From a virus: a DNA stretch of 21,010 nt. Positions within the stretch are counted from its first letter, which is position 1; each line of letters starts with the position of its first letter. The position numbers and the translations under genes are program-made. Positions 2,543 to 15,509 of this stretch are shown in pieces. The notes under the pieces were generated by a model. That model was not told where the DNA came from, made no database searches, and saw only the letters and a list, made by a program, of their open reading frames with translations. The stretch lies in the UHGV virus genome UHGV-1822439; one strand, 5' to 3'.

Positions 2543-2582
2543 CGCAATGACTCCATTATGTTAATTAACCTGGTAATTTTAC

Positions 2583-2623
2583 CATTTTGTGATCTGTGTT
2601 ACATTCCTGACCTATACAAAATG
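2583..2623. promoter_or_regulatory. Junction inverted-repeat element, site A
   Basis: CATTTTGTGATCTGTGT at 2583-2599 and TATACAAAATG at 2613-2623; TTTTGTGATCTGTGT is identical to site B (14768-14782). Lies between the divergent tail fiber (-) and lipoprotein (+) genes. Confidence 0.5.
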
Positions 2624-2701
2624 TATTTATTGATTTATATCAATGTTGAGAAAACGATGTTTATGGATACTACAACCGACGGAACAATGGAGGATAAGAC
2701 A

Positions 2702-2941
2702 ATGAAAGGCTTTAAAAATATCGCTATAGCTGCAATGGTCGCTGGTATGGTTGGTTGTGCTGATATGCCGAAACGTGAATGCACGGCAATTTATCAGGCT
2801 GGCGGTAATGAATATGCGGTTGCAGTCTTCGGTGTCGCGGATGTTGGCGGTCATAAAATGGTTAAGGCCGGGTATCCGTTTAACTTCCAATGGGTAAGCG
2901 TTGACCACTTCAAGAAAACGGATTGCCCGGAACTGAATTAA
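2702..2941 (+). CDS. Small lipoprotein (79 aa), antisense moron next to the tail fiber gene
   Basis: Perfect SD GGAGGA (2689-2694), 7 nt before ATG at 2702. N-terminus MKGFKNIAIAAMVAGMVG-C is a signal peptide with lipobox (MVGC); mature part ~60 aa with three further Cys. The ORF-track N-terminal extension from 2558 has no SD. Confidence 0.6.
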   Translation: MKGFKNIAIAAMVAGMVGCADMPKRECTAIYQAGGNEYAVAVFGVADVGGHKMVKAGYPFNFQWVSVDHFKKTDCPELN

Positions 2942-3537
2942 TCATAGGCGTCGGTTTTAATGGCGGTGATAGCGTTCCCGTGATTAATGTAACCGTAAAT
3001 CTGTTGCAAGCTACCAACCATCTTCCCGCGAATTCGTGTAGTGCTGCCGTTGTAGTATGCCTCTGTATATATTGTCGCAGAACCCATACCTACAACGGCC
3101 CCTAATATCTGAGGCACTACCGCATAAGATCCTGATAATGTCTGGTCGATATAAATTCCACCACTTGATCCGGCTGTCCCCACCGTAACAATGTCTGTCA
3201 ATATTCTTGATTCGTTTGTCAATACCAGTTCACCGGAAGCGTTCCATATAGCCATACCCCACTTCGGACGCGATTGCGGGAAGATACTGAATATATACGC
3301 GTAACCGTTTCCTGGTGGAATCACTATGGTAGACGATGAATTGCGATAGGCTACACCAGTAGCGGTATCGTCTGTGTTTTTTATGAATACCATTACAGGC
3401 TTCCCATTGGGGACGGCTATTGTTTGCTGTTGGCTTGAATTGAGAGCAACCCGTGAATAAAGGCACATAGGTGTCGAATCTGGAGTTACGAAAATATTGC
3501 CATTACTTAAACGTAAATAAGCGCCGAAAGTAGCCAT
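2938..3537 (-). CDS. Tail-associated hypothetical protein (199 aa), paralog of the upstream small gene
   Basis: ATG at 3537 directly abuts the upstream stop (TAAATG, 3540-3535). N-terminus MATFGAYLRLSNGN resembles MDTFGVATWDANGN of the upstream gene. Its 3' end converges on and overlaps the lipoprotein gene stop. Confidence 0.5.
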   Translation of the reverse strand: MATFGAYLRLSNGNIFVTPDSTPMCLYSRVALNSSQQQTIAVPNGKPVMVFIKNTDDTATGVAYRNSSSTIVIPPGNGYAYIFSIFPQSRPKWGMAIWNASGELVLTNESRILTDIVTVGTAGSSGGIYIDQTLSGSYAVVPQILGAVVGMGSATIYTEAYYNGSTTRIRGKMVGSLQQIYGYINHGNAITAIKTDAYD

Positions 3538-3899: not shown

Positions 3900-6800
3900 C
3901 TACCATGATCCGGTAATTCGCCCAATCTGGACGCGTAACACGCCATTACCATCTTTTACTGAGATAGTTGTGTTCGTCCATTTCATTGCTCCTTCACCGC
4001 TTACTGATCCGTAGTTTTCGAATGTACCGGATTTATCAAGTTTCCAGCCTGTGCTGCCGGAAACATAGTTATTTGATTGGATGTAAGAACCTATTTTCGC
4101 GTTAGTGATTGATGCGTCCTTAATAAACGCTTCACGTACATACATTGCGCCGCCAGTGACATAGAAAGGCGTTGTATATGTGCCGTTTGCGGCGGTCATT
4201 AACACGAAGCGATCAACGAGGAAAATACACTGCGATTGGACATTAGTCCCGCTACCAGTAAGGCCGAGCGACATGCCGGTAGCATATTTAACGCCTCTGC
4301 TGTCTGTCGCGATCTTAATAGAGTATGATGCATCGACATTCCCCTTAAAGTCCGTTAACGCTTTCGATGTCGTCTCTATGGCTGTTGTGTTCCCGTCAAT
4401 AGTTACTTTTAACTGGTCAATTTTGGTTGATAATGCCTCGTCAGTCGTTGTCATGGCCTGTGACCATTCCGTGATACTTGAGTTTACATCGTCGAAAGAT
4501 GCCGATATTTGAACAAATTTTTCAGCACTTGATGCCTCGTGAGTTGCGAGCGCCGTTGATATATCTGTTATTTTTGCTGAAATGTTTTCATTAATATTGG
4601 CTTCAAGTGATGCTATAGCCTCCGCGCGGGCCTGGGTTTCGTCTGCTATTGCTGTGTCGATCCTTGCTATTTCCGCTTTTGTTTTTGTCTGGCCTTTCCT
4701 GTACTTCGCCTCAATAACGGTGCTCATCTTGCTTTGCGCTATTGAGTTGTTGATAAGTGCAATCGAGGCGTTTTGCAGACTTGCTTTTGCCTGATCTATT
4801 TCGTTGCTGTTTTTATCAACCTCATTTTCAACAAGACCAAGCTCCGCACTGATTCCTGATATTGCCTGAGCGCGGGCGCTTGATTCGTCAGCGATAGCTT
4901 GATCGAGACGAGAAACGCTCGCATCAGTTTTGTTTTCCAGGCTGCTGATACTGGCGTTAACGTTGCTTATAGCTTCCGTTCTCGCCTGCGTTTCGGTTGC
5001 GATTGCTTTGTCTACGCGGGCTATTTCTCCTTTGATGTTTGAGTCTATCGTATTTATTTCGGCTGTGATGGTTTCCAGTGATTCCGCTGTCGCTTTTTTC
5101 TCCTCTGCGATAACGTTGTCGATGCGGTCAATCTGTGCCTTTGTTTCGTTGCGACCTTTCTTATATTGAGCGGTAAGAGTAACCCGCGTGTTAGTTTGAG
5201 CAAGCGAGTTATTGATCAGAGCAAGCGAAGCGTTTTGTAAACTTGCTTTTGCCTGTGCCAGTTCGTTGTTAACGTTTTCGTTTGATACCTCTAATGAGTC
5301 TATTCTTACCTCATGTTTGCCTATTTCATCGGCGTTTTCTTCGACTTTTTTATAAAGGTCTTCGGTGTCTTTTTTAAGTGTATCTGTGTCAGCTTTAAGA
5401 TCCTCTGTAGCTATTTTAAGGTCTTCGGTAGCTCCTTCTACAATATCAGTGCGCTCACCAAGATCTTTAATGTCGCTAATCATCTCCTTGAATTGCTCTG
5501 ATTCCATTACATCCTTTGTAACGTAATCAGTGATTTCGTCAAAATCCTCTGTTGGCTTACCTGATGCCTCGACGAAATCAGACACACCAAAAGCATTACG
5601 AGTGCGCACATAAACGTAATAAGTATGGCCCGTATTCATGCCGCCGAACGTCCACTGATACCCGCGCCCGGTAAACTGTGCCGACGTGGTTATTTTTGCC
5701 GGATCTGTGATCTGATTTTCCCCTGCATAGTAGAATTCATATGACGTATCGGTAGTAAGCGTGGTTTTGCTTATCGGGTACACGGTCGCCTGAAATACGC
5801 CTGGAACCCAATTTACGCCAACTGGCGCGGCTGGAGCACCAATAACAAGATCAACAATGCTTTCAGCGCCTTTCATGCCAGTATCGTTTCTTCCGCGAAC
5901 GCCTAACGAATACGCGCCAGCGTCAATACCATAAAAATCATAACTGTATTTCGTTGTTTCGTAGCTTTTAACCACCGCACCATCAGTATTGTATATGCGG
6001 ATCTCGAATGTCATGCGATGCGTGGTTGTCTGTGTTTCCCATGTAGCTCGGCATTGAACTGTTTCAGATCCGATGTTTACCACTTTCAGGTTTTCAATGT
6101 TCGGGACACGGAAGTGATTAAGCGTGTCGTTGTTGATTTCAAATATCGCGCCTTCATCGACTACCGCTTGTTTGTTCGGGTCATGTTGCGCTGCTTCGAT
6201 GGTATACACGCTATTATTTTCGGTTTCGGCTACACTGGTGATCCGGCATAAAACGGGTTTTTCCGCTTCGGTGGATACAGCAAATACAGTACCGTTCCGA
6301 ATCCATGCCGGGGCCGCCGCTAGTGTGATTTCGTTTCCGTTTACACCAGTAATCTGATGTTTTTTAAATTTGCCGTCGCTGTCGAGTAAGCTGATGGTGT
6401 CGCCTGCTGTGATATAGTCGCTGTCAACCTTATCGACCGTTATCACGTTTCCATTGTTCGCCACGATACGCCCACCTAAACGCGCACCTGCGCGGTTATT
6501 GTCGAGGATTTCGACTATATCCCCTGGCGTAAAGTGAATCGCGTCACGTGCCATTTTAAACGTGAATTTTGACGGCTCGCGTTTTGCTGTTTCTATCAGC
6601 CATTTGCCCGCGCGGTACGCTTGCCCGCGTGACGTACAGCCGAACGCCTCCATCGTGGTTTCGTTGTAACCATCGCGGGCGATTAGCTCATCATCTGCTA
6701 CATACTCTTTTGACTGCTCCCACCCGTTTTCCGGGTCAGTCCAGGATACGATCACGGCGTTGTAGCATTCCGCACGGGCGATACTCGAACGAGTGAACGC

Positions 6801-7952
6801 GCCATCAACGACGTTTGCATTCGTAATGGTGGCGATTGGATCTTGCGGTGCATCAATCATTACGGTAAGACGTTGCCCGTCCCATAACGCGATGCCACGG
6901 AACATCCCGGCGATATTGTCCAGCAAATCGCGGGCGCTCATTTGCTCTGTTATGTACGCATTAAGCGTCACGCGAGGCTCAAGGCCACCGTAACCATCAT
7001 CGACCAACTGGTCGCAGTATTGGGAAAGTGTGTATAATGCGCCGTCGTCAACGTCGATATAACCAGCATGGCGGGCAAGGCCGAAACGCTCGTTTTTAAC
7101 CAGGTAACGAAAGATCCACGCAGGGTTATTAGTGTAAGCCTGTTTAAAGCCGCCAAGCCATAAACCGGAATAAGTGCGCGTTTCCGGGTCGTAGTTATCA
7201 GGCACGTCAACAATAAGCCCACGCAGGTGATAAGTGCGTGTAGGTGTGTCAGTATACTGATCGTGATCAATTACCGCGCCTGCTACAGCAGTGTGAGGAT
7301 AAGACAAATTATCGTCGATTATTTCGCTGTAGCTACTCCACCGCGTATCATTCTGCAATAGATCACCTGTGCTATCAGCGGTTACGCGGCGAACGCGAAT
7401 ATCAAACGGCTTTTCATCTGGCGCATCAATAATATGCGCTTCAAGGTATTCTCCGCTGATTTTACCTGGACCTATTTGCACGGCCTTAATAGACGACCAT
7501 GTTGAGGATGAGGACGGTTTAACGTCGATCGCCATAATGACAGATGTTTCTTTCTGGTTTGATTGGCTATCGCTTTCCACCAGTGAATCCACACCAATAT
7601 TTAACCGGACTCGCGTCACGTTCGGATCTGATACGGTCCTTACCAGCGGCGTGTCGTGTTTCACCTGTGCGTTAACCATTACCGTGGATTCGATGGCATT
7701 AAAACCGTTAATCGGTGATTGATCTAACGTACCATTACGCCACGCCACGCTAACGCCTGGGATGCTGGTATTACCGTTCGCGTCAGTTACAGGCGTGTCA
7801 TTAAGCATTACGCTATTTAATGGCGCACTGGTATTGACAGGGCCATAAATCGGGCCTTCCGAAATAATATCCAGCACACGATAAAACTGTTTGTGATAAA
7901 GGTTATCATTTATTAATGTTGGTGTTTTTGCTTTGCCGCCGCCGCTACTCAT
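3900..7952 (-). CDS. J: Host specificity protein J (tail tip / central tail fiber), 1350 aa
   Basis: Shares N-terminal motifs with lambda J as I recall it (ISEGPI.GPV, YHLRG, NAY.T, FGCTSRGQA.RAG.WLI); SD AGGAG before ATG at 7952. C-terminal third is a long repetitive coiled-coil unlike lambda J. Confidence 0.9.
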   Translation of the reverse strand: MSSGGGKAKTPTLINDNLYHKQFYRVLDIISEGPIYGPVNTSAPLNSVMLNDTPVTDANGNTSIPGVSVAWRNGTLDQSPINGFNAIESTVMVNAQVKHDTPLVRTVSDPNVTRVRLNIGVDSLVESDSQSNQKETSVIMAIDVKPSSSSTWSSIKAVQIGPGKISGEYLEAHIIDAPDEKPFDIRVRRVTADSTGDLLQNDTRWSSYSEIIDDNLSYPHTAVAGAVIDHDQYTDTPTRTYHLRGLIVDVPDNYDPETRTYSGLWLGGFKQAYTNNPAWIFRYLVKNERFGLARHAGYIDVDDGALYTLSQYCDQLVDDGYGGLEPRVTLNAYITEQMSARDLLDNIAGMFRGIALWDGQRLTVMIDAPQDPIATITNANVVDGAFTRSSIARAECYNAVIVSWTDPENGWEQSKEYVADDELIARDGYNETTMEAFGCTSRGQAYRAGKWLIETAKREPSKFTFKMARDAIHFTPGDIVEILDNNRAGARLGGRIVANNGNVITVDKVDSDYITAGDTISLLDSDGKFKKHQITGVNGNEITLAAAPAWIRNGTVFAVSTEAEKPVLCRITSVAETENNSVYTIEAAQHDPNKQAVVDEGAIFEINNDTLNHFRVPNIENLKVVNIGSETVQCRATWETQTTTHRMTFEIRIYNTDGAVVKSYETTKYSYDFYGIDAGAYSLGVRGRNDTGMKGAESIVDLVIGAPAAPVGVNWVPGVFQATVYPISKTTLTTDTSYEFYYAGENQITDPAKITTSAQFTGRGYQWTFGGMNTGHTYYVYVRTRNAFGVSDFVEASGKPTEDFDEITDYVTKDVMESEQFKEMISDIKDLGERTDIVEGATEDLKIATEDLKADTDTLKKDTEDLYKKVEENADEIGKHEVRIDSLEVSNENVNNELAQAKASLQNASLALINNSLAQTNTRVTLTAQYKKGRNETKAQIDRIDNVIAEEKKATAESLETITAEINTIDSNIKGEIARVDKAIATETQARTEAISNVNASISSLENKTDASVSRLDQAIADESSARAQAISGISAELGLVENEVDKNSNEIDQAKASLQNASIALINNSIAQSKMSTVIEAKYRKGQTKTKAEIARIDTAIADETQARAEAIASLEANINENISAKITDISTALATHEASSAEKFVQISASFDDVNSSITEWSQAMTTTDEALSTKIDQLKVTIDGNTTAIETTSKALTDFKGNVDASYSIKIATDSRGVKYATGMSLGLTGSGTNVQSQCIFLVDRFVLMTAANGTYTTPFYVTGGAMYVREAFIKDASITNAKIGSYIQSNNYVSGSTGWKLDKSGTFENYGSVSGEGAMKWTNTTISVKDGNGVLRVQIGRITGSW
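4616..5300 (-). repeat. Internal duplicated coiled-coil units within J
   Basis: About 165-nt units at ~4681-4850 and ~5140-5300 (protein ELAQAKASLQNASLALINNSLAQ... vs EIDQAKASLQNASIALINNSIAQ...), plus ~60-nt related units at ~4616-4670, ~4858-4915, ~4970-5030 (R.D.AIA.E..AR..AI). Confidence 0.7.
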
Positions 7953-9173: not shown

Positions 9174-9878
9174 TTAACCTACCTTGCTGGAACCAGGAAA
9201 ACAGGAGATCGGCAGTGCTGCCGGACGCGGAAAACGCAAACGGCAACCGCTAAGGCGGTGGCTGCATTTGTCTAACGTTGGGTCACTTGTTGGTGTATCT
9301 TTATCAGTTGCGACCGGGCCGCCAGAATACATGCACCCGTCGCCTCTGTATTGCCACTGACAAACGTCAGCAAGGATGGTGCGCCCTGGGATAACGGCTT
9401 TATCTGCATCAATTGGCGTTGACAATTCATATTGCACCTGATCCGCTGTTTCTTCGCTCATTGCTTCAACGACGTAAAAAGATACAGCCTCAATAGATGG
9501 ATCTGCGTCTGGATTGCCGTTAGGGAAGTTAACGGCGTCCAGGTATTTAACCTCCACCTGGCGGCGCGTAACCTTCATTCCTCGCAGGTCGTTGAAATCG
9601 TTATTCATCCCTGTGATTAGCCCGCCGATATTGGCTACAACCATTTGAGGCCGCGAATAAACGCCCTCGTTTTTCATTTCGAAGCCCGTCGTCTCGATCG
9701 GGTAGCTGTTGTAAGCTACTCCCTTCCAGATAACCTGGCCGTAATAGCCGTTCGCGCCGGAATGGAAGCGGATAACCTCGCCTCCCAGGGGAGTAAGGTC
9801 CAGTTCAAATAAGTCAATGACCGCGCCAACTCCGGCATCGACGGAATCAATAATCATCTCTCTCGGAATATTGCGCAT
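9174..9878 (-). CDS. L: Minor tail protein L (234 aa)
   Basis: Similarity to lambda L (RRQVEVKYLDAVNF vs RRKVYARFLDAVNF; C-terminal Cys cluster C..GCMY..KCSHRLSGC). SD AAGGTGAG 5 nt before ATG at 9878. Confidence 0.85.
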   Translation of the reverse strand: MRNIPREMIIDSVDAGVGAVIDLFELDLTPLGGEVIRFHSGANGYYGQVIWKGVAYNSYPIETTGFEMKNEGVYSRPQMVVANIGGLITGMNNDFNDLRGMKVTRRQVEVKYLDAVNFPNGNPDADPSIEAVSFYVVEAMSEETADQVQYELSTPIDADKAVIPGRTILADVCQWQYRGDGCMYSGGPVATDKDTPTSDPTLDKCSHRLSGCRLRFPRPAALPISCFPGSSKVG

Positions 9879-9891
9879 TTTCTCACCTTGT

Positions 9892-9930
9892 CATTTTGTG
9901 ATATGCGTCACGCTAAATCACACCAAAATG
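9892..9930. promoter_or_regulatory. Junction inverted-repeat element, site C
   Basis: CATTTTGTGAT (9892-9902) and ATCACAccAAAATG (9917-9930) form an imperfect inverted repeat, 14 nt upstream of the L start on the minus strand and just before the plus-strand cassette. Confidence 0.5.
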
Positions 9931-9932
9931 GA

Positions 9933-9961
9933 TTGTTCATGGTTTTTACAATATGTATATT
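9933..9961 (+). promoter_or_regulatory. Candidate sigma70 promoter for the L/M-junction cassette
   Basis: TTGTTC (9933-9938), 17-nt spacer, TATATT (9956-9961). Weak -35; by eye only. Confidence 0.3.
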
Positions 9962-10007: not shown

Positions 10008-10196
10008 ATGACTGAAAAGCCATGGAAGTTGACGGTATTCATGACAGACGGTAGGGAAAAGGTTATCGCCCTGTATGACGACGAGGGGGAAGCATTGGTT
10101 GACGCGCTTTTACTTGCTGAGGATGACCGCCTTTTGGGATACCAGATCGAACCTGTCAAATATGAGGCTAACAAAAATGAAAAAATACAGTCTTGA
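10008..10196 (+). CDS. Small acidic protein (62 aa), first gene of the L/M-junction cassette
   Basis: SD GGAGG (9997-10001) 6 nt before ATG 10008. MTEKPWKLTVFMTDGREKVIALYDDEGEALVDALLLAEDD...PVKYEAN; paralogous to the N-terminus of the next gene. An alternative start at ATG 9990 is possible. Confidence 0.55.
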   Translation: MTEKPWKLTVFMTDGREKVIALYDDEGEALVDALLLAEDDRLLGYQIEPVKYEANKNEKIQS

Positions 10197-10524
10197 TGTG
10201 TGGTTAAGTGGTAGCAAGGAGTGTTTCGGATTATTTGATAGCGAAGAAGTAGCCCTGGAAGAAGGCAGGATTCTTGAATGTAGTTTAGGCCATCCAGTGA
10301 AATATGCTGCTAATCCGGTACAGATAGTTGATGAGGTGGAAGATATGAACCCGAAAGATATTAATGTTAACTTCAATGTTAATTTTGCAGACTCTATGGA
10401 TCAGTCTTGCCCTGGTGAAATACACGCAAAAGGTTTCCCGGCTGACGATCCAGAAGCAAAACGCGAATACGAAAAAGCTGCGAAAGACTTCTGCATGGAT
10501 AATCTTGCAGCATTCGATAAATAA
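10177..10524 (+). CDS. Acidic protein (115 aa), tandem paralog of the preceding gene with a C-terminal extension
   Basis: ATG 10177 overlaps the preceding gene by 20 nt. N-terminus SLDVWLSGSKECFGLFDSEEVAL...GHPVKYAAN aligns with ...LTVFMTDGREKVIALYDDEGEAL...GYQIEPVKYEAN; strongly acidic. A GTG at 10198 is an alternative start. Confidence 0.55.
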   Translation: MKKYSLDVWLSGSKECFGLFDSEEVALEEGRILECSLGHPVKYAANPVQIVDEVEDMNPKDINVNFNVNFADSMDQSCPGEIHAKGFPADDPEAKREYEKAAKDFCMDNLAAFDK

Positions 10525-10533
10525 GGGGGATAC

Positions 10534-10782
10534 ATGGGGCGGCGCAATCACGGCGATTATGTGTACACGCTGAAACAGGCCGCCCGCCTCGTTGGTTATC
10601 ATGAACACGAATTTATTGATTTGCTGATTGAGCGCGGGATACTGTACCAGGTCTGTTTAACGCTGTACCCGAAAGCTAAATACCTACAGGAAAAGTTATT
10701 TATCATCATGACGGATGAAAACCAGGTTAACCATTCATTCGTCACTGATAAGGGCGTTAATTATCTGCGTGATAACTTATAG
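10534..10782 (+). CDS. Small protein (82 aa), possible helix-turn-helix DNA-binding protein
   Basis: SD AAGGGGGA (10524-10530) before ATG 10534, 9 nt after the preceding stop. Segment TLKQAARLVGYHEHEFIDLLIERGIL has a helix-turn-helix-like pattern (by inspection only). Confidence 0.5.
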   Translation: MGRRNHGDYVYTLKQAARLVGYHEHEFIDLLIERGILYQVCLTLYPKAKYLQEKLFIIMTDENQVNHSFVTDKGVNYLRDNL

Positions 10783-10792
10783 GTGACAGATT

Positions 10793-10909
10793 ATGAAAAT
10801 AGAAGTTTTGGCGCTAATAATAATGGGATTGATAGTATTTGGCGTTCATGCTGTAGATCTGGACTGGAAAACGATAGCGGAAAATATAGCATTAATGGAA
10901 ATGGAATAA
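10793..10909 (+). CDS. 38-aa hydrophobic peptide (single TM or signal-peptide-like N-terminus)
   Basis: SD AGGTGA (10781-10786) before ATG 10793. MKIEVLALIIMGLIVFGVHAVDLDWKTIAENIALMEME, stop TAA followed by two more in-frame stops and a terminator. Below the ORF-track length cutoff. Confidence 0.45.
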   Translation: MKIEVLALIIMGLIVFGVHAVDLDWKTIAENIALMEME

Positions 10910-10914
10910 TAATA

Positions 10915-10940
10915 ACCCCGCTTCGCGCGGGGTCGTGTTT
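10915..10940. terminator. Intrinsic terminator closing the L/M-junction cassette (possibly bidirectional)
   Basis: Stem ACCCCGC (10915-10921) / GCGGGGT (10927-10933), loop TTCGC, then CGTGTTTAT; on the minus strand the hairpin is followed by TATTATTATT. Confidence 0.6.
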
Positions 10941-10987
10941 ATACGCCATCAACCAAAAATAAAACCCCCTTCCCTTCCCGGGATCTA

Positions 10988-11125
10988 CACCCCCACGTAC
11001 CCATCGCCAACGTCGTGAAGATACCATATATCGCCGTTGTCAGCTTTTACAGTAAGGTCGTTGATCTCATAGTCGTCAAACAATGTAAAAGCGTAAGTTT
11101 TGTCAACCACACAAGTCCCGTACAT
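10988..11125 (-). CDS. Possible small ORF (46 aa) just downstream of M
   Basis: ATG at 11125, 12 nt after the M stop, preceded by GGGGGG with about 6-nt spacing; MYGTCVVDKTYAFTLFDDYEINDLTVKADNGDIWYLHDVGDGYVGV. No family recognised. Confidence 0.3.
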
Positions 11126-11137
11126 AACAACCCCCCA

Positions 11138-11491
11138 TTAGCCAACAACTTGTTCAAACGTTGCGTTTAGCGTGTACACAGGCCCGTCTTTGGTCATGCT
11201 CCAGCTACGGCAAACGAAAAGCCTTTGCACCCCGTCGATCGATGGAGTCCAGTAAAACGCCTCGACAGCGCCGCGCGCCCTCAAAAATGCTTCGGCCTGG
11301 ATCGCCACGTTTCCACCATCACCACATCCCGCGCTACTGCCTTTGAAAACCAGGGTATAACTATCAAGCAACGTGTTAATCCCTTTCGCCTGGCGCTGTT
11401 CATAACCATCACCAAGTTTAACGACAGACACATTTGGTTCCCTGGTCACGCTGTAGCTTCTTTGCGGCGTCCATCTGAAAACTTCTGGCAT
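11138..11491 (-). CDS. M: Minor tail protein M (117 aa)
   Basis: Similarity to lambda M as recalled (FRW near N-terminus, GDGYEQR vs GDGYSQR, C-terminal FEQVVG vs FEQVVN). SD AGGGGGA before ATG 11491. Confidence 0.85.
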   Translation of the reverse strand: MPEVFRWTPQRSYSVTREPNVSVVKLGDGYEQRQAKGINTLLDSYTLVFKGSSAGCGDGGNVAIQAEAFLRARGAVEAFYWTPSIDGVQRLFVCRSWSMTKDGPVYTLNATFEQVVG

Positions 11492-11557
11492 GATTCCCCC
11501 TATAAGTTACATATTGCATACATCTTTACGCGCTTCTACGCGAAAAATGAGAAATTC

Positions 11558-11589
11558 ATCACAAGAATTATAACCAGTTTACAAAATGG
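11558..11589. promoter_or_regulatory. Junction repeat element, site D
   Basis: ATCACAAgAA (11558-11567) and TTTACAAAATGG (11578-11589): same half-site family as sites A-C, immediately upstream of the candidate promoter. Confidence 0.4.
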
Positions 11590-11590
11590 C

Positions 11591-11619
11591 TTCACATAAG
11601 GCGTGACAAGATGTATATA
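11591..11619 (+). promoter_or_regulatory. Candidate sigma70 promoter for the M/tape-measure-junction cassette
   Basis: TTCACA (11591-11596), 17-nt spacer, TATATA (11614-11619); about 40 nt upstream of the first SD. Confidence 0.45.
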
Positions 11620-11660: not shown

Positions 11661-11816
11661 ATGAAGCGTTATGTAGTGGTAATGCTGAACAACGCATTCG
11701 AACAGGTGGAAGTGGCGATAGTCAAAGGCTTTGATGACGCATTCAAATACGGTCAATTCATGATGAATGCGAAGGAAAACGAGTACCGTGATTTCTTCCT
11801 GAAAGTGGTCAACTAA
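11661..11816 (+). CDS. Small protein (51 aa), first gene of the M/tape-measure-junction cassette
   Basis: Strong SD AAAGGAGG (11648-11655), 5 nt before ATG 11661; MKRYVVVMLNNAFEQVEVAIVKGFDDAFKYGQFMMNAKENEYRDFFLKVVN. Below the ORF-track cutoff. Could be the partner (antitoxin-like) of the next gene. Confidence 0.5.
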   Translation: MKRYVVVMLNNAFEQVEVAIVKGFDDAFKYGQFMMNAKENEYRDFFLKVVN

Positions 11817-11834
11817 TGGATTGTGGGGTGTGTT

Positions 11835-12089
11835 ATGAAATTGGTGGCGATTGGTAAAAACCTGAAAGCACAGAAAAACGCACAGGACCGGATCATCAAG
11901 AAAGGAAAGCAATTGCTTGATGCTTTTCTTAAAAAAGAGGCCAACCCCAAAAAATTACGCGATGGCTACGGTTATAAATTTGACATCAACCCCGATTGGC
12001 GGTTATTCAGCGAAGATTTAAAGATGTGGTTAATTATTGACCACCTGGAATATAACAGGCACTGTGGGGTGAAAGGCGCTCACAAGTGA
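11835..12089 (+). CDS. Small basic protein (84 aa), candidate RelE/ParE-superfamily-like toxin
   Basis: ATG 11835, 18 nt after the upstream stop. MKLVAIGKNLKAQKNAQDRIIKKGKQLLDAFLKKEANPKKLRDGYGYKFDINPDWRLFSEDLKMWLIIDHLEYNRH. Pattern (basic N-terminal helix, NP..KL..G, D.R, C-terminal H/Y) loosely resembles RelE/YafQ/YoeB toxins; weak, from memory. Confidence 0.3.
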   Translation: MKLVAIGKNLKAQKNAQDRIIKKGKQLLDAFLKKEANPKKLRDGYGYKFDINPDWRLFSEDLKMWLIIDHLEYNRHCGVKGAHK

Positions 12090-12120
12090 CACGGATTTGA
12101 ATGTTGCGGAGGAAAACAAA

Positions 12121-12291
12121 ATGAAAAATCCGGCAAATAAAAGCAACGTAAAACGCATGGCATGGGTGCTAAAATATATGGATAGTAAAGGGGATACATA
12201 TACATGCCCATTTTTTAGGTGTACTGACGCGGTATTTGCCAGAAGTGTACACGGAGGGAAAATTGAGAGAGGATATACAAGATTTGAGTAA
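12121..12291 (+). CDS. Small basic protein (56 aa), hypothetical
   Basis: SD GGAGG (12108-12112) 8 nt before ATG 12121; MKNPANKSNVKRMAWVLKYMDSKGDTYTCPFFRCTDAVFARSVHGGKIERGYTRFE. Confidence 0.45.
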   Translation: MKNPANKSNVKRMAWVLKYMDSKGDTYTCPFFRCTDAVFARSVHGGKIERGYTRFE

Positions 12292-12329
12292 ATTTATTCA
12301 CGAAATCAATAACATGATGAAGGTTTATA

Positions 12330-12509
12330 ATGATTATTCATGATACTGAAGAATGCAGAAGGATTGATCTTAGTATTGAAGATGACGGAAGATTATGGAT
12401 CGTTAGCGACTGCGAGATGATTGTAATAGACAAAAAGCAAGCTGACGAACTGATAAGAGCATTGCAGCTTTATGCAAACGGCGAATTTAAAAATGATGAA
12501 ATTGAATAA
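12330..12509 (+). CDS. Small acidic protein (59 aa), hypothetical
   Basis: SD GAAGG 8 nt before ATG 12330; MIIHDTEECRRIDLSIEDDGRLWIVSDCEMIVIDKKQADELIRALQLYANGEFKNDEIE; stop 12507-12509, immediately followed by a terminator. Confidence 0.45.
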   Translation: MIIHDTEECRRIDLSIEDDGRLWIVSDCEMIVIDKKQADELIRALQLYANGEFKNDEIE

Positions 12510-12513
12510 AATA

Positions 12514-12540
12514 GCCCCGGCATTGTGCCGGGGTTTTGTT
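12514..12540. terminator. Intrinsic terminator, bidirectional (closes the cassette; also follows the tape measure gene on the minus strand)
   Basis: Stem CCCCGGCA (12515-12522) / TGCCGGGG (12526-12533), loop TTG, then TTTTGTTTATTT on plus; on minus the hairpin is followed by CTATTTTATTC. Confidence 0.75.
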
Positions 12541-14753
12541 TATTTCCTGCGAGGTTGCAGCATTCCGCCTGGTCTGGATGATTCGCGGTGCATCAGGCCC
12601 ATGCAGATCCTTTCCATGTCCTGTTGCAGCTTTTTGGCATCCTCATCGCTCCATCCATTTTGTGGGTAAACACTAATCGGCGCGTTTATGCTAACGCTAC
12701 CACCACCAGCACCACCAATGTCGCGATTTGGTATTACCCTGCCGTTGTCACCCGGGATCATGTACTGACTCCCATTGCTCGCCTGAAAGATCTCCGGTTT
12801 ACCGTGTTCGCCGACCTTATAGAGGCTGCCCGCAGCCACCGCACCGCCGTTATAACGAGCGCCAGCCAGGCCAAGCGCTTTTGCTCCAGCCACACCAGTG
12901 GCAAGACTCGTACCCCCCACGGTCGCCGCGCCGCCCATCGTGGCTACGTTTGCCAGGTATGCAGGAGTAGCCCACGCAGATCCCAAAGCGGTAGCCTCTG
13001 CCAATGCTTTAGCTGTTGCGGCTGCGCTGGCGGCCTCGCCTATCAATTGCTGCTTGACCCATTCAGCCCCCATTTGAACAAGCGTACCGATAACGGAGGA
13101 AAGGATTGTATTGCCAATGTTAGCCAGCGCCTGCTGCCAGCTTTGAGTGCCGTTAACCAGGCCCACAAGCGCATTTGTTGCAGATCCGCCCATTGCATCA
13201 ACGGTATCGCCCAACAGTTTGTAGCTCATTGACTGTGCTTTATATCGCTCCCACTCAAGGGTGAGCATTTCCTGTGCGTGCGCTCTTTCTTGTTCCCTCA
13301 TATATTGCTCAGTAGCGCCAAGATCTTCCAGCATTTGCTTACGAACGGTCCATTCATTTTGCGCCTGCTGTATTGGGTCTAGTTCACCGCGCTTCTGATC
13401 CAGTGATGGAATCATTTTGTCCCATTTTTCTTGCAGCCTATTGATCGGGTCGTTAATTTCCGCCAGAGTTTCGCGCAATTCATCACCAATTCCCTTCATT
13501 GCGCCTTTGTATTCAAGCATGGTTATTTTCCCGGCTTTAAAGGCTGCATCTATGGCTTTTTGTGATTCAAGCGCTTTGCGCATTGCTGCCGAATCTTCGT
13601 TATATGCATCTGAAATGCGCACACCCTGTTCCGCAAGGCGCTCGGCTTCTGATTTGCCGGTTTTTTTACCTTTGCCTTTCTTACCCTTACCACCAGGTTG
13701 AGGCTTAAACGTTATGCGACTTACACCAGCTTGCCCCGTGGGGAGAGTGGAAACAAATGGCTGTTCTCCGCCATCAAACCATCCAACCTGTTTCGCTTGA
13801 GCGCGGAACAAACTAAGCCCAGGCACTATACCCTCAAACGCCCCAGCCAATAGCCACAATTTATCAGTTAATGACGTGCTATCGCTCGCCAGGGACTTAA
13901 ACCAACCAGATAACATCTGGACTTCACTAGAAACAGCCTGTATACCAGTAACTACCAAATCAGACACTCCAAGCGTTTGGTTTAGCGTGTCAATTAACAG
14001 ATCGAAGTTGTTTTTTAGCTCGTTAAATGCCTGATCTGTTGTTGTTGGCAGTTTTGCGAAGTCCTTCTCTATGTCTTCTGCGCCAGCAAGAATTGAATTG
14101 GTAACATCCTCGGCGGTGAGCTTACCATCAAGCATTCTTGCGCGAAGTTCACCCATCGAGATCCCCATTTGTTTGGCGACGCGTCGCCATACTTCGGGCA
14201 TGTTTTCAAGCACAGAGTTGTATTCTTCCGCGCGAACAATGCCACCCGTCAGGGACTGCCCTAACTGGCGAAGTGCGTTTGACATTTCATCTGATGAGCT
14301 ACCTCCGATACGGCCTATTTTCTGAAGCGAGTCGGTAAGCTGCAATACCTGCTGACTGGTCGCGCTGGTATCCTGTAGGCTGGCTTTTAGGCTTTCCCAC
14401 AGCTTCCCGGTGCTTTGAACACTCATCCCTGTGCGATTCGATATCTGAACAATCCCGTCAAAATTCGATTTTGCGTCAGCAATGCCGCTTGATAGTCGTG
14501 TTACCCTGGCGCGTAGCAGATTTACGTTATCTGCGATCTCCAGGAATTTTTTTGCAGCCATGACCATCATTCCAATGTTCACGGCTTTGGATAAATTACT
14601 TATCGTGGTATTAAGTGACTGCACTGATTTATCGGTGCGTTTAGCGCCTTGCTCGATTTTATCAAACGAGTCCTCCGCCTTGCGTTGAGCTACTAGTAAC
14701 CGCTCGGTTTTTGCGTCAACGGTATACTCAATCGTGCCCACATTTGTTGTCAT
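12540..14753 (-). CDS. Tail length tape measure protein (737 aa)
   Basis: Large ORF between the chaperone and M; alpha-helical, Ala/Gln/Leu-rich with Gly-rich and Lys-rich segments (KGKKGKGKK); SD GGAG before ATG 14753. Confidence 0.85.
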   Translation of the reverse strand: MTTNVGTIEYTVDAKTERLLVAQRKAEDSFDKIEQGAKRTDKSVQSLNTTISNLSKAVNIGMMVMAAKKFLEIADNVNLLRARVTRLSSGIADAKSNFDGIVQISNRTGMSVQSTGKLWESLKASLQDTSATSQQVLQLTDSLQKIGRIGGSSSDEMSNALRQLGQSLTGGIVRAEEYNSVLENMPEVWRRVAKQMGISMGELRARMLDGKLTAEDVTNSILAGAEDIEKDFAKLPTTTDQAFNELKNNFDLLIDTLNQTLGVSDLVVTGIQAVSSEVQMLSGWFKSLASDSTSLTDKLWLLAGAFEGIVPGLSLFRAQAKQVGWFDGGEQPFVSTLPTGQAGVSRITFKPQPGGKGKKGKGKKTGKSEAERLAEQGVRISDAYNEDSAAMRKALESQKAIDAAFKAGKITMLEYKGAMKGIGDELRETLAEINDPINRLQEKWDKMIPSLDQKRGELDPIQQAQNEWTVRKQMLEDLGATEQYMREQERAHAQEMLTLEWERYKAQSMSYKLLGDTVDAMGGSATNALVGLVNGTQSWQQALANIGNTILSSVIGTLVQMGAEWVKQQLIGEAASAAATAKALAEATALGSAWATPAYLANVATMGGAATVGGTSLATGVAGAKALGLAGARYNGGAVAAGSLYKVGEHGKPEIFQASNGSQYMIPGDNGRVIPNRDIGGAGGGSVSINAPISVYPQNGWSDEDAKKLQQDMERICMGLMHRESSRPGGMLQPRRK

Positions 14754-14766
14754 GATTGTTACTCCA

Positions 14767-14830
14767 CTTTTGTGATCTGTGTATCTATTTTATACAAAAT
14801 GTCTTTACTATAACGACTCCATTTTGTATA
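14767..14830. promoter_or_regulatory. Junction inverted-repeat element, site B
   Basis: CTTTTGTGATCTGTGT (14767-14782), TATACAAAATG (14791-14801), and its exact inverted copy CATTTTGTATA (14820-14830). Starts 14 nt upstream of the tape measure start and overlaps the candidate plus-strand promoter. Confidence 0.55.
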
Positions 14831-14832
14831 AA
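14804..14832 (+). promoter_or_regulatory. Candidate sigma70 promoter for the secreted-protein moron
   Basis: TTTACT (14804-14809), 17-nt spacer, TATAAA (14827-14832); followed by a purine-rich leader (14833-14909). Confidence 0.4.
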
Positions 14833-14909
14833 GAGACTAAAGGAAAGGGATAGAGCAAAGGGGTTTGAAAGGACCGGATAAACCGGAGGAAGCAAAAGAG
14901 GATAAGAAA

Positions 14910-14999
14910 ATGAAAAACGTAAACTATCGTCCCAACGAACATGAACGCTATGCGGACTTCATAGAAGAAATGTTAAAAGCACTTAAAAACAAAAATTAA
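14910..14999 (+). CDS. Tiny ORF (29 aa), possible leader peptide or small protein
   Basis: SD AAGAGGA about 7 nt before ATG 14910; MKNVNYRPNEHERYADFIEEMLKALKNKN; stop 12 nt before the next start. Confidence 0.3.
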   Translation: MKNVNYRPNEHERYADFIEEMLKALKNKN

Positions 15000-15011
15000 T
15001 CGAGGCGGGTT

Positions 15012-15509
15012 ATGAAACGGCTAGTAAAAGTCGCGGTAGCTGCGGTCATGGCAATATTCGCGGTCAATGCAAATGCAAGTAATGAAGTCAGCAAGATGTG
15101 CGACGCTATTTATCCAGCCTACGAAAAAGCATATACAATGGCAAATGTAAACTTTTTTTCAATTGGTAGGCACGGCGTTAACTGGGAGTATTTCATCTTA
15201 AATAAAGATAGCAGGACCAAAAAAGGTGACGCTGAAATGATAAAAGCGCACGGTGAAAGTTTCGCTTTCGTGATGGCTGCTGCTGAAAACAAACAAAATG
15301 ATAATGAATTTAAAAACTTTGTCGCTGGACTTGCCATCATGGCTGCTGAACGGGCGATAAAAGATCACGACAATAACGCTTATGCCGCTGCCGACGGGAT
15401 GGCATTAGATAGGGTAAGAATTGACTTCAAAAACATGTGCGTCAAAGAAGGCGCTAACATGTATAAAAAAGTAATAGATAAACACCACGAATATTATATA
15501 GGTTATTAA
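15012..15509 (+). CDS. Secreted/periplasmic protein of unknown function (165 aa), moron
   Basis: SD GAGG 6 nt before ATG 15012; signal peptide MKRLVKVAVAAVMAIFAVNANA with Ala-x-Ala cleavage site; two Cys in the mature part; Ala/Lys/Asn-rich, likely helical. Confidence 0.6.
   Translation: MKRLVKVAVAAVMAIFAVNANASNEVSKMCDAIYPAYEKAYTMANVNFFSIGRHGVNWEYFILNKDSRTKKGDAEMIKAHGESFAFVMAAAENKQNDNEFKNFVAGLAIMAAERAIKDHDNNAYAAADGMALDRVRIDFKNMCVKEGANMYKKVIDKHHEYYIGY

Follow-up and report, generated by a model that had tools for sequence, protein, structure and literature searches.

On the surface of DNA-mimic proteins, carboxylates follow the arrangement of the phosphates in B-form DNA, typically across an elongated dimer. 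In phage phi80, the reverse-oriented defense gene taiEcA lies within the late operon, is expressed in the lysogen and is silenced during lytic growth (PMC11364771). The mEpimmI phages, described as a group in PMC11893012, have one immunity group common to all of them, and Cor-type lipoproteins of the mEp phage group exclude superinfecting phages (PMC11893012). The stretch of DNA analyzed here (21,010 nucleotides; hereafter the window) is, by its matches, an mEpimmI (mEp021-like) prophage of E. coli. It is 81.5-86.9% identical to five mEp phages and matches two more in part, and an E. coli M15 prophage shows 99.9% identity to it over 18.5 kb. The two genes examined here, g1 and g2, lead a small-gene cassette of this prophage, and the analysis indicates that they are real genes, probably involved in phage-host or phage-phage conflict. 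The M15 prophage is 100% identical over the 1.3-kb cassette query, and its RefSeq annotation presents g1 and g2 as the same two CDSs.

The cassette is located between tail genes L and M (homologs of the tail-tip genes gpL and gpM), which are encoded on the opposite strand, so that it is reverse-oriented with respect to the tail genes. It comprises four genes:

10008..10196, plus strand: g1, 62 aa, a single domain with predicted strand-strand-helix-strand order, pI 4.43, net charge -6
10177..10524, plus strand: g2, 115 aa, a two-part protein, pI 4.41, net charge -12
10534..10782, plus strand: g3, 82 aa, a stand-alone KilAC (ANT C-terminal) domain protein
10793..10909, plus strand: g4, a 38-aa hydrophobic peptide, MKIEVLALIIMGLIVFGVHA and VDLDWKTIAENIALMEME on the two sides of a putative cleavage point

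The original prediction had placed g1 and g2 at these coordinates on the plus strand with a 20-nt overlap, and both reading frames and the overlap (10177-10196) were confirmed in the window. In related loci the overlap varies or becomes a gap: the g1-g2 junction presents overlaps of 19-20 or 31-32 nt, or else gaps, mostly of 1-15 nt but reaching 32 nt and, in one locus, 166 nt. The gene order L, g1, g2, an optional insert, g3, g4 (not always present), g5 and M, with L, g5 and M facing the cassette genes on the other strand, is maintained in about 50 related phage and prophage loci. Genes g1, g2 and g3 were found in nearly all of these loci (g1 in 49 of 51), while allele content and optional inserts vary. 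The cassette behaves as an insertion hot spot, with extra small genes and a homing endonuclease detected among the related loci. Its G+C content is 0.37-0.46 over most of its length, with a fall to 0.40-0.45 across the cassette in the composition profile, compared to 0.50-0.56 in L and M, and the sign of the GC skew is reversed across the cassette relative to its flanks. Besides cor, the window has two more cassettes of reverse orientation in its tail region. One of these units, cassette B, consists of a small gene (51 aa) followed by a ParE-like toxin gene.

The downstream genes of the cassette differ in their conservation. The g3 product matches the Pfam model PF03374 above its curated cut-off (E=1.3e-6), is 89-100% identical across loci and evolves with a dN/dS of 0.11; the g2-to-g3 spacing is 8-9 nt in 42 of 51 loci. 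The g4 peptide, detected in about 37 of the 51 related loci with two C-terminal variants, would be either signal-peptide-like or a single transmembrane segment, cleavage being a reading of its residues.

The region upstream of g1 and the 3' end of the cassette contain the following elements:

9897..9912, plus strand: CRP-type palindrome TGTGAtatgcgTCACg, upstream of the cassette promoter, matching 9 of 10 positions of TGTGA-N6-TCACA
9933..9961, plus strand: predicted sigma-70-like promoter, read from sequence, with -35 TTGTTC, a 17-nt spacer and -10 TATATT
10914..10934, both strands: bidirectional intrinsic terminator, found by a scan on both strands, closing the cassette

The window contains three CRP-type sites with at most one mismatch to TGTGA-N6-TCACA (0.55 expected), two of which are upstream of plus-strand cassettes. 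When 35 distinct intergenic sequences, taken from 46 loci, are compared, the spacer varies and the two half-sites, TGTGA and TCAC(G), hardly change. Few stretches of the L-g1 intergenic region are as well conserved as the promoter block, whose -35 hexamer is TTGATC in most relatives and TTGTTC in the window; a generic promoter scan missed this block because it falls below the 9/12 threshold. At class I CRP-dependent promoters, the CRP site is centered near -61.5 or at least one helical turn further upstream. From the coordinates, some 61.5-63.5 nt separate the center of the palindrome from the predicted transcription start downstream of it, a distance that would correspond to class I geometry, and on the basis of consensus, conservation and spacing the palindrome can be assigned as a putative CRP site. 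A motif similar to the cassette promoter, ACAAnATGTATAT, is present upstream of cassette B, and a common promoter architecture precedes cor and cassettes A, B and C. Terminators are annotated at the place equivalent to 10914-10934 in the mEp044 and mEp021 records.

Translation of g1 is preceded by a strong Shine-Dalgarno sequence (GGAGGTG, 4 nt upstream of the start). Its product matches PHROG 29559, and g2 matches PHROG 38567, both of function unknown; these were the only matches for the two proteins in family searches with Pfam, NCBIfam, PHROGs and PADLOC. Homologs of g1 form 20 clusters, all from E. coli where a name is given, and those of g2 form 57 clusters. The AlphaFold models predict a compact beta-beta-alpha-beta mini-domain in each protein (pLDDT of about 70-84 for g1 and about 90 for the g2 N-domain), followed in g2 by a disordered linker and one helix, so that g2 can be divided as follows:

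10177..10326, plus strand: g2 N-domain, residues 1-50, predicted g1-like beta-beta-alpha-beta fold, a variable and exchangeable module
10333..10347, plus strand: internal Shine-Dalgarno-like GAGGTGG, 5 nt and an in-frame ATG (Met57), within g2
10345..10524, plus strand: g2 C-module, residues 57-115, with the conserved core ADSMDQxCPGEIHxxGFPADDPxAKREYEKAAKDFCIDNL

The claim in the original prediction that g1 and g2 are diverged duplicates holds for part of their length. The quoted strings PVKYEAN and PVKYAAN are correct, and the similarity of the pair is significant both by BLASTP (18/52 identities, 35%, E=5e-5) and by Smith-Waterman alignment (score 53 against 24 +/- 4 for shuffled sequences; z=6.8, up to 7.5, with 0 of 5000 shuffles as high). 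The two AlphaFold models present the same element order, strand-strand-helix-strand, and g1 and the g2 N-domain thus combine the significant similarity and shared predicted fold that define tandem paralogs. The g1-like part is limited to g2 residues 1-50, the linker and C-module having no counterpart in g1. Furthermore, the strong likeness to g1, including the PVKYEAN/PVKYAAN strings, is a special feature of the g2 allele class that the window carries; most other g2 alleles score z values of 0-3 against g1, and the profile-profile comparison of the two families yields E=0.008 with a probability of 4.9%. Given this weak similarity in most alleles and the weak profile match, the resemblance looks like the product of an old duplication or of a shared fold, and not of a recent duplication.

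Several related possibilities were considered and rejected. Recent gene conversion between g1 and g2 is contradicted by the PVKY(E/A)AN motif, which differs at synonymous positions, and a programmed frameshift from g1 into g2 by the +1 frame of g2, the lack of a suitable slippery site and the variable junction. P0002, a 171-aa protein with the look of a fusion, is an artefact of an indel: its reading runs into the g2 frame at a point where that frame is still upstream of the gene and non-coding. The allele classes of g1 and g2 reassort, which contradicts an obligate cognate pairing of the two, and the 51-aa first gene of cassette B, considered as a third paralog, shows no sequence similarity to them (z at most 1.6).

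The comparison among loci divided the beta-beta-alpha-beta domains into several allele classes of old origin, which recombination has reshuffled between flanks that are very conserved. Their amino-acid divergence is 34-42%, against 5-10% in the neighboring genes. For the g2 N-domain, the mean amino-acid distance between loci is 0.42 and pS is 0.64, deeper than in the flanking genes, and this domain reassorts independently of both g1 and the g2 C-module. Each allele class is under purifying selection (pN/pS of 0.21 within g2 N-domain classes), and the gene-wide dN/dS is 0.23 for both g1 and g2, compared to 0.05-0.11 for L, M and g3. No segment showed pervasive positive selection, dN/dS staying below 1 in all of them; the linker of g2, which is acidic and unconstrained, is alone in approaching 1, in agreement with its predicted disorder. 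With gene-wide dN/dS below 1, the locus does not carry a direct arms-race signature, and what is seen is deep allelic diversity alone.

The C-module of g2 presents the opposite pattern. The last 45 residues of the protein have a mean amino-acid distance of 0.09, and residues 71-115 a dN/dS of 0.09; both the C-module and g3 are very conserved, and their mutual distance correlation is the best observed, though weak (0.26). The model contains a single helix (residues 92-113), other residues being of low confidence. A HMMER search of 1.84 billion representative proteins with g2 returned 15 hits, including fragments and long proteins with several short matches, and identified no distant relatives in another context other than free-standing C-modules. 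These are proteins of 56-62 aa (positions 2971-3153 of contig L052, P0079 in L053, and L007) on contigs of unrelated phages, among which L052 (rV5-like) and the 58-kb L053 resemble virulent phages. In the virulent-like contigs the C-module is set among arrays of small genes, and in L052 a g4-homologous peptide lies directly 3' of it. A purely lysogen-specific role makes less sense in such contigs. The free-standing genes start at a methionine equivalent to Met57 of g2, which is itself nearly invariant, and of 40 distinct g2 coding sequences, 33 contain A or G followed by AGGTGGAA, 3 nt and ATG, and five more a one-base variant. The Met57 site is possibly an internal start of translation, or else what a gene fusion left behind.

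Searches beyond the two PHROGs did not associate g1 or g2 with any known family, by sequence or by fold. Neither protein matched Pfam or NCBIfam at E values up to 1, and 44 members of the g2 family did not match Pfam at E up to 10; both family profiles returned nothing below E=0.01 in a PDB sequence search. The PADLOC defense models did not match g1, g2, g3, g4 or g5 at E up to 1, and no toxin-antitoxin or defense model was detected for g1-g4 in Pfam, PADLOC or NCBIfam. Foldseek searches of BFVD with the g1 and g2 N-domain models recovered uncharacterised small phage proteins only. The best neighbors of the g2 N-domain are phage proteins of 50-60 aa, several of them labelled DUF7336, with near-full target coverage and a TM-score on target of 0.67-0.80, at E values of 0.008 or worse; the Pfam model of DUF7336 had no sequence match to g1, g2 or 44 g2 homologs. 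Homology to Tai/Ati of phi80 (TaiEcA, AtiEcA) was rejected, tblastn and profile searches returning matches at chance level only. No homology to known anti-defense proteins was found either, the match to AcrIC8 being at noise level and ranking below ClpS and PurS. Literature searches on the accessions, the PHROG numbers and DUF7336 did not return anything.

The properties of the locus suggest, if tentatively, that g1 and g2 lead a self-contained, reverse-oriented moron with a likely role in prophage-expressed conflict by protein binding and not by DNA mimicry, a reading that we regard as possible more than probable. The cassette has its own predicted promoter and a terminator, lies within an unrelated module (tail genes L and M) and differs from the flanking genes in G+C content and GC skew. 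Its antisense place in the late operon and a promoter architecture like that of cor and the ParE-like cassette are the signature of prophage-expressed morons; its presence in nearly all of the approximately 50 related loci departs from their sporadic distribution. In the proposed mechanism, the host RNA polymerase would transcribe the cassette independently of, and antisense to, late transcription, and the cassette would consequently be expressed in the lysogen, and possibly also right after the DNA has entered the cell. Convergent late transcription might switch it off, by analogy with taiEcA of phi80. The variable beta-beta-alpha-beta domains would act as specificity-determining protein-binding modules, and the conserved C-module would cooperate with its conserved partners encoded downstream, g3 and/or g4. 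Such a system would most likely serve for exclusion of, or abortive defense against, other phages via stoichiometric protein binding. Observations that go against this moron and conflict reading are the lack of PADLOC matches and of Tai/Ati homology, the failure of the generic scan to call the promoter, the C-modules of the virulent-like contigs, the lack of a direct arms-race signature, and the layout itself, in which small genes that vary precede a conserved one and which fits anti-defense loci equally well.

The original prediction had described both proteins as strongly acidic and proposed them as possible DNA mimics of the Ocr/ArdA type, in which an acidic surface resembling the DNA backbone would titrate out restriction enzymes or other DNA-binding defense proteins. 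Both proteins are indeed net acidic, and acidity is general in the two families (median net charge of homologs -4.5 for g1 and -10 for g2), but the description is overstated. Net charge per residue is -0.10 for g1 and g2, less than half the charge density of T7 Ocr (-0.24), and their basic content is normal (23% Asp+Glu and 13% Lys+Arg in g1, 21% and 10% in g2, against 29% and 5% in Ocr); neither shows the very dense acidic and sparse basic residues expected of a mimic. The charge is spread over three segments, some homologs have a net charge of only -2, which is also the median for the g2 N-domain alone, and two further small ORFs of the window exceed both proteins in acidity per residue. Moreover, neither protein belongs to the Ocr/ArdA family by sequence, no Pfam, NCBIfam or PDB sequence match was obtained, and the predicted structure combines a globular mini-domain of 50 residues with a disordered linker and does not have the form of an elongated charged rod. 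Such acidity is common among small phage proteins and does not constitute evidence of DNA mimicry, which is disfavored here as very improbable; the present result mainly corrects an over-reading of acidity. Scarcely credible is the suggestion that g1 and g2 are chance ORFs or decaying, functionless genes. They are short, restricted to one phage group and devoid of known domains, but their position is kept in about 50 loci with dN/dS of 0.2-0.4, the g1 ribosome-binding site is strong, the genes are tightly packed and the g2 N-domain is predicted with confidence.

Anti-defense inhibitors that are not DNA mimics, produced from a host-recognized promoter upon DNA entry with g3 as an associated regulator, are a rather unlikely explanation. 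They would account for the acr-aca-like arrangement of variable small acidic proteins between a conserved promoter with a palindrome at the 5' side and a very conserved small protein at the 3' side, for the insertion hot spot and for the small-gene arrays around the C-module in virulent-like contigs. Weighing against them are the lack of homology to known anti-defense proteins (with AcrIC8 at noise level), the antisense position in the late operon, the promoter architecture common to cor and the ParE-like cassette, and the nature of g3, by its Pfam match a KilAC protein and not a member of a known Aca family, a stand-alone KilAC having been reported as a growth-arresting toxin (bioRxiv 10.1101/2024.01.05.574328). 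Of the two halves of the interpretation advanced in the original prediction, DNA mimicry is disfavored, and the broader anti-defense idea may or may not hold. That same toxin, CreP (103 aa), is bacteriostatic and toxic in E. coli (bioRxiv 10.1101/2024.01.05.574328), and lends some weight to a toxin-antitoxin or abortive infection system in which g3 or g4 would be the toxin, the C-module would neutralize it and the beta-beta-alpha-beta domains would sense proteins of an invading phage. The constant g2-g3 spacing, the conservation and weakly correlated distances of C-module and g3, the small gene preceding the ParE-like toxin in cassette B, and the g4 homolog that travels with the C-module in L052 are in line with this system. 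It is nonetheless distinctly unlikely: g3 is absent beside the free-standing C-modules of L052 and L053, about 14 of 51 loci yielded no g4, no toxin-antitoxin or defense model matches g1-g4, and two antitoxin-like genes per toxin would be unusual. Finally, g3 could act as an antirepressor on the immunity-I repressor, with g1 and g2 modulating it and CRP linking induction to carbon status. The ANT/KilAC domain of g3 and the CRP-type site upstream of the cassette point in this direction, and the shared immunity group (PMC11893012) would explain the extreme conservation of g3. A role in lysis-lysogeny regulation is nevertheless quite improbable, for the KilAC domain stands alone, without the N-terminal part of characterized antirepressors, variable g1 and g2 are hard to square with a conserved regulatory circuit, and an antirepressor under CRP alone would induce the prophage at every glucose exhaustion.

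A more specific version of the conflict proposal, which we consider distinctly doubtful, envisages a new modular system. In such a system, the C-module would control g4 (as a membrane or secreted peptide) and/or the KilAC growth inhibitor g3, and swappable heads (g1 and the g2 N-terminus) would recognize competing-phage or host immune proteins. A cAMP-CRP switch would turn on this cassette, cor and the two further cassettes in the lysogen, and the internal start at Met57 would allow g2 to yield two products. If the reading of the variable domains as specificity heads is true, the locus would provide a compact and tractable exclusion, abortive-defense or anti-defense module; mEp021 grows on E. 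coli K-12. It could also show how temperate phages vary their conflict genes, old alleles being exchanged between flanks that stay conserved, with such genes tied to host physiology through CRP, and it would supply a first function for two orphan PHROGs and for a portable 45-residue module found in unrelated coliphages.

Comparison with described systems places the cassette near several of them. Like T7 Ocr and ArdA, g1 and g2 are small, phage-encoded and net negative, but they differ in charge density (below half that of Ocr), in their normal basic content and in a globular predicted fold with a linker. The likeness to DUF7336 is weak, confined to the fold level and to the modelled g2 N-domain; the g1 model does not recover the DUF7336-labelled set, and no sequence match exists. 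To our knowledge, DUF7336 itself has no known function. With CreP (bioRxiv 10.1101/2024.01.05.574328), g3 shares by description a single KilAC domain in a protein of about 80-100 aa, whereas CreP is controlled by a CRISPR effector and not by upstream protein genes. The acr-aca layout is present, with variable small acidic proteins 5' of a conserved small protein, a conserved promoter with a palindrome and a unit embedded among structural genes; here, however, the conserved gene encodes, by its Pfam match, a KilAC domain instead of a recognized Aca helix-turn-helix, the palindrome resembles a host CRP site, and the unit and the structural genes lie on different strands. The morons or noncontiguous operons represented by taiEcA of phi80 (PMC11364771) and lambda bor also have their own promoter-like region and terminator, occupy the opposite strand between late structural genes and have a G+C content below that of their flanks, and expression in the lysogen with silencing by convergent late transcription would, by analogy, be expected for the cassette. 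The cassette is distinguished from them by its four small genes instead of one, by the lack of homology to Tai/Ati and by a distribution that is not sporadic.

The window corresponds to the structural-gene region of a temperate siphovirus of Escherichia coli belonging to the mEpimmI (mEp021-like) group, and mEp021 is able to grow on E. coli K-12. The group was described in 2025, in a report that makes no mention of g1 or g2, the two tandem small acidic ORFs under study (PMC11893012). The region around these ORFs shares 81.5-86.9% identity with mEp013, mEp554, mEp010, mEp515 and mEp044, with mEp021 and MagusPhagus giving partial matches. Of 5426 complete E. coli genomes, 35 carry the cassette. 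A prophage of strain M15 (NZ_CP185789.1) is identical to the window throughout the cassette, with 99.9% identity along 18.5 kb, and the RefSeq CDSs in it are the same two ORFs. This prophage carries an IS903B insertion beside the fibre gene (window ~2479-2487) that the window lacks. Tail genes, including I and K, run on the minus strand, and between L and M they are interrupted by a plus-strand block (cassette A), across which G+C drops and the GC skew flips sign:

3900-7952, minus strand, tail gene J
9174-9878, minus strand, tail gene L
10008-10196, plus strand, g1, 62 aa, MTEKPWKLTVFMTDGREKVIALYDDEGEAL...
10177-10524, plus strand, g2, 115 aa, MKKYSLDVWLSGSKECFGLFDSEEVAL...
10534-10782, plus strand, g3, stand-alone KilAC/ANT domain (Pfam, E=1.3e-6)
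10793-10909, plus strand, g4, 38-aa hydrophobic peptide
10914-10934, bidirectional intrinsic terminator, end of the cassette A block
11138-11491, minus strand, tail gene M
12540-14753, minus strand, tape measure gene

Both g1 and g2 are genes. A strong ribosome-binding site (GGAGGTG) lies 4 nt upstream of the g1 ATG, and the order L<-|g1>g2>(optional insert)g3>(g4)|<-g5<-M is kept across related loci (45 IMG/VR loci and six annotated records). Nei-Gojobori dN/dS is 0.23 for each of the two genes, against 0.05, 0.08 and 0.11 for their neighbours L, M and g3. The cassette is also an insertion hot spot, with insertions between g2 and g3 (L028, L002, L006, L011 and L044; in some loci a 77-81 aa protein, MKMIGIIKLVVTSNK...) or between g3 and g4 (L005, L009, L020, L034, L043, L045 and L051; in some a 67-aa protein, MLKYDGQ...), and one locus has acquired an HNH-type homing-endonuclease-like gene.

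The original prediction described g1 and g2 as diverged duplicates overlapping by 20 nt. The ORF coordinates bear out the overlap in the window; it is no conserved feature of the pair, since in related loci the two genes overlap by 19-20 or 31-32 nt, or are separated, mostly by 1-15 nt. The similarity is genuine for the window's pair, where it covers the first 50 residues of g2 (BLASTP E=5e-5, 35% identity over 52 residues; Smith-Waterman score 53 versus 24 +/- 4 in shuffles, with 0 of 5000 shuffles as high), but it is much weaker at the family level: a profile-profile comparison gave E 0.008 with a probability of 4.9%, and g1 reaches no more than z=0-3 with the majority of other g2 alleles. 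In AlphaFold2 models built from family alignments, both proteins have a predicted strand-strand-helix-strand arrangement (pLDDT of about 90 for g2 residues 1-50 and 70-84 for g1). With a real pairwise signal and a weak family-level one, we interpret the two genes as products of an old duplication or as sharing a common small fold; the g2 allele class in the window happens to keep the most resemblance to g1. The g2 family is extremely narrow, its profile finding only 15 representatives in 1.84 billion proteins, and these include fragments and long proteins with multiple short matches. A seeming g1-g2 fusion in a metagenome record (P0002, 171 aa, 'Bacteriophage sp.') was rejected as an indel artefact, in which the reading shifts from the g1 frame to the g2 frame upstream of g2, where that frame is non-coding. 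Several g1 homologues (P0060-P0062, P0066, P0070; L004 1358-1513) are called 'transporter' by NCBI, a label that looks spurious because these are soluble, acidic proteins of 51-67 aa lacking a hydrophobic segment.

The g2 protein itself falls into three parts:

residues 1-50, N-domain, variable
residues 51-70, linker, predicted disordered
residues 71-115, C-module, conserved

Between loci, the N-domain differs by a mean amino-acid distance of 0.42, with a pS of 0.64 that is deeper than in flanking genes, and within allele classes its pN/pS is only 0.21. Evolution of the linker is nearly neutral (within-class pN/pS 0.93), the C-module is constrained (mean distance 0.09, dN/dS 0.09) and g1 resembles the N-domain in its behaviour (mean distance 0.34). 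Pairwise distances among g1, the N-domain and the C-module are poorly correlated (Spearman 0.21, 0.11 and 0.17). The allele classes of the three reassort almost freely, so their variability reflects recombination, which has shuffled several old allele classes between very conserved flanks. Ongoing positive selection was rejected as its source in favour of this shuffling.

The C-module is found on its own as well, as a gene encoding 56-62 aa. It occurs in L052, a 121-kb contig in which the surrounding genes are similar to those of rV5-like myoviruses, with a g4 homologue directly downstream (about 3164-3301); in small-gene arrays of L053 and similar contigs of ~58 kb (P0079); and in a prophage of strain MFDS1019527 (L007). 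Each of these stand-alone genes begins at a methionine that corresponds to the near-invariant Met57 of g2. In the window, a Shine-Dalgarno-like GAGGTGG and the in-frame ATG of Met57 lie 5 nt apart (10333-10347), and of 40 distinct g2 sequences, 33 have [AG]AGGTGGAA plus 3 nt, well suited as a Shine-Dalgarno sequence, directly before Met57, while five more have a one-base variant of it. Because free C-modules start at this position and the Shine-Dalgarno is kept before it, g2 is best seen as a g1-like gene fused to a C-module gene. The motif may be a relic of that fusion or mark an internal start, possibly giving a free C-module. The N-terminus of g4 resembles a Sec signal peptide (MKIEVLALIIMGLIVFGVHA|VD...), with two C-terminal variants among relatives, and g4 could be a secreted or membrane peptide.

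The 129-nt spacer between L and g1 is more conserved than the genes it precedes. It holds a palindrome with near-invariant half-sites and a variable 6-nt spacer (35 distinct sequences). The consensus of CRP sites is TGTGA-N6-TCACA, and a CRP-type site would be expected to leave this conservation pattern. Measured from the predicted start, the centre of the palindrome is 61.5-63.5 nt upstream, a position that would correspond to class-I geometry. The window contains three CRP-core sites (at most one mismatch) versus 0.55 expected; of the two besides the palindrome, one falls in the region preceding cor, which encodes the Cor exclusion lipoprotein, and one ahead of the second plus-strand cassette. 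Furthermore, all four plus-strand units of the tail region share an upstream element, TTTTGTGA...CAAAATG (in fuller form (CA)TTTTGTGAnnTG..., CAAAATG), followed by promoter-like hexamers:

2583-2623, upstream element of cor
9892-9961, upstream element of cassette A
9897-9912, palindrome TGTGAtatgcgTCACg in the L-g1 spacer
9933-9961, predicted promoter, TTGTTC/TTGATC, 17 nt, TATATT
11543-11619, upstream element of cassette B
11661-12509, plus strand, cassette B
14766-14840, upstream element of cassette C
~14911-15509, plus strand, cassette C

The heptamer CAAAATG is enriched in the window (16 versus 6.3 expected). The shared element and this enrichment suggest that the reverse-oriented units are co-regulated by host RNA polymerase and their expression coordinated, possibly in a cAMP-CRP-dependent manner. 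The start that RefSeq gives cor (2558; window 2558-2941) probably lies too far upstream; at 2702 there is an ATG, preceded by GGAGG, from which MKGFKNIAIAAMVAGMVGC is read, with a lipobox, and the region from 2558 to 2702 holds the shared promoter element. Cassette B, between M and the tape measure gene, opens with a 51-aa gene (11661-11816) whose product has no sequence similarity to g1 or g2. It is followed by a ParE-like toxin gene (11823/11835-12089; Pfam PF24732, E=6.7e-12), whose relatives RefSeq names 'ParE family toxin-like protein', and the two could form a toxin-antitoxin pair inside the tail operon.

The g1 and g2 products had been described as paralogous and strongly acidic, an observation that is essentially right but over-stated, and had been proposed as possible DNA mimics. 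Both are net negative (23% D+E and 13% K+R in g1; 21% and 10% in g2), yet only moderately so: their net charge per residue of -0.10 is less than half that of T7 Ocr under the same computation (-0.24). Homologues have a median net charge of -10 for g2 and -4.5 for g1, with some at only -2. Two further small ORFs of the window exceed g1 and g2 in acidity per residue. The gene that closes cassette B (12330-12509) encodes 59 aa with 27% D+E and -0.15 per residue, and its product has no family match. A conserved, very acidic 46-aa product (pI 4.05, PHROG 3249) is encoded by g5 (10985-11125), on the tail-gene strand between the cassette terminator and M, in all related loci. Because of the charge density and predicted shape of g1 and g2, DNA mimicry is disfavoured and is the least supported reading.

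We consider the architecture of the cassette well supported. It would represent a conserved, reverse-oriented moron operon, an independent accessory unit in the late region, probably CRP-responsive. In it, g1 and g2 would carry interchangeable beta-beta-alpha-beta recognition domains, fused in g2 to a portable conserved module that would act together with the conserved genes downstream, and the most likely setting is conflict with other phages. As a whole, this functional reading is tentative. Alternatively, the cassette may serve in anti-defence: the layout resembles that of acr-aca operons, and the C-module is found in virulent-phage-like contigs. A third reading, that of a toxin-antitoxin or abortive-infection module, draws on the tight and conserved g2-g3 junction and on the stand-alone KilAC protein CreP, which is reported to arrest growth (bioRxiv 10.1101/2024.01.05.574328). 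The novelty is modest, comprising orphan small-protein families in a familiar kind of element from a recently described phage group.

A prophage-expressed role in conflict is favoured by the predicted small membrane or secreted peptide, g4, and by the promoter architecture that cassette A has in common with the ParE-like toxin cassette and with cor, whose type of lipoprotein excludes superinfecting phages in the mEpimmI group (PMC11893012). Tai and Ati have no homology to the cassette proteins. The orientation likewise favours a prophage-expressed role: cassette A is antisense to the late operon, as is the defence gene taiEcA of phi80, where this layout keeps taiEcA on in the lysogen and off in lytic growth (PMC11364771).
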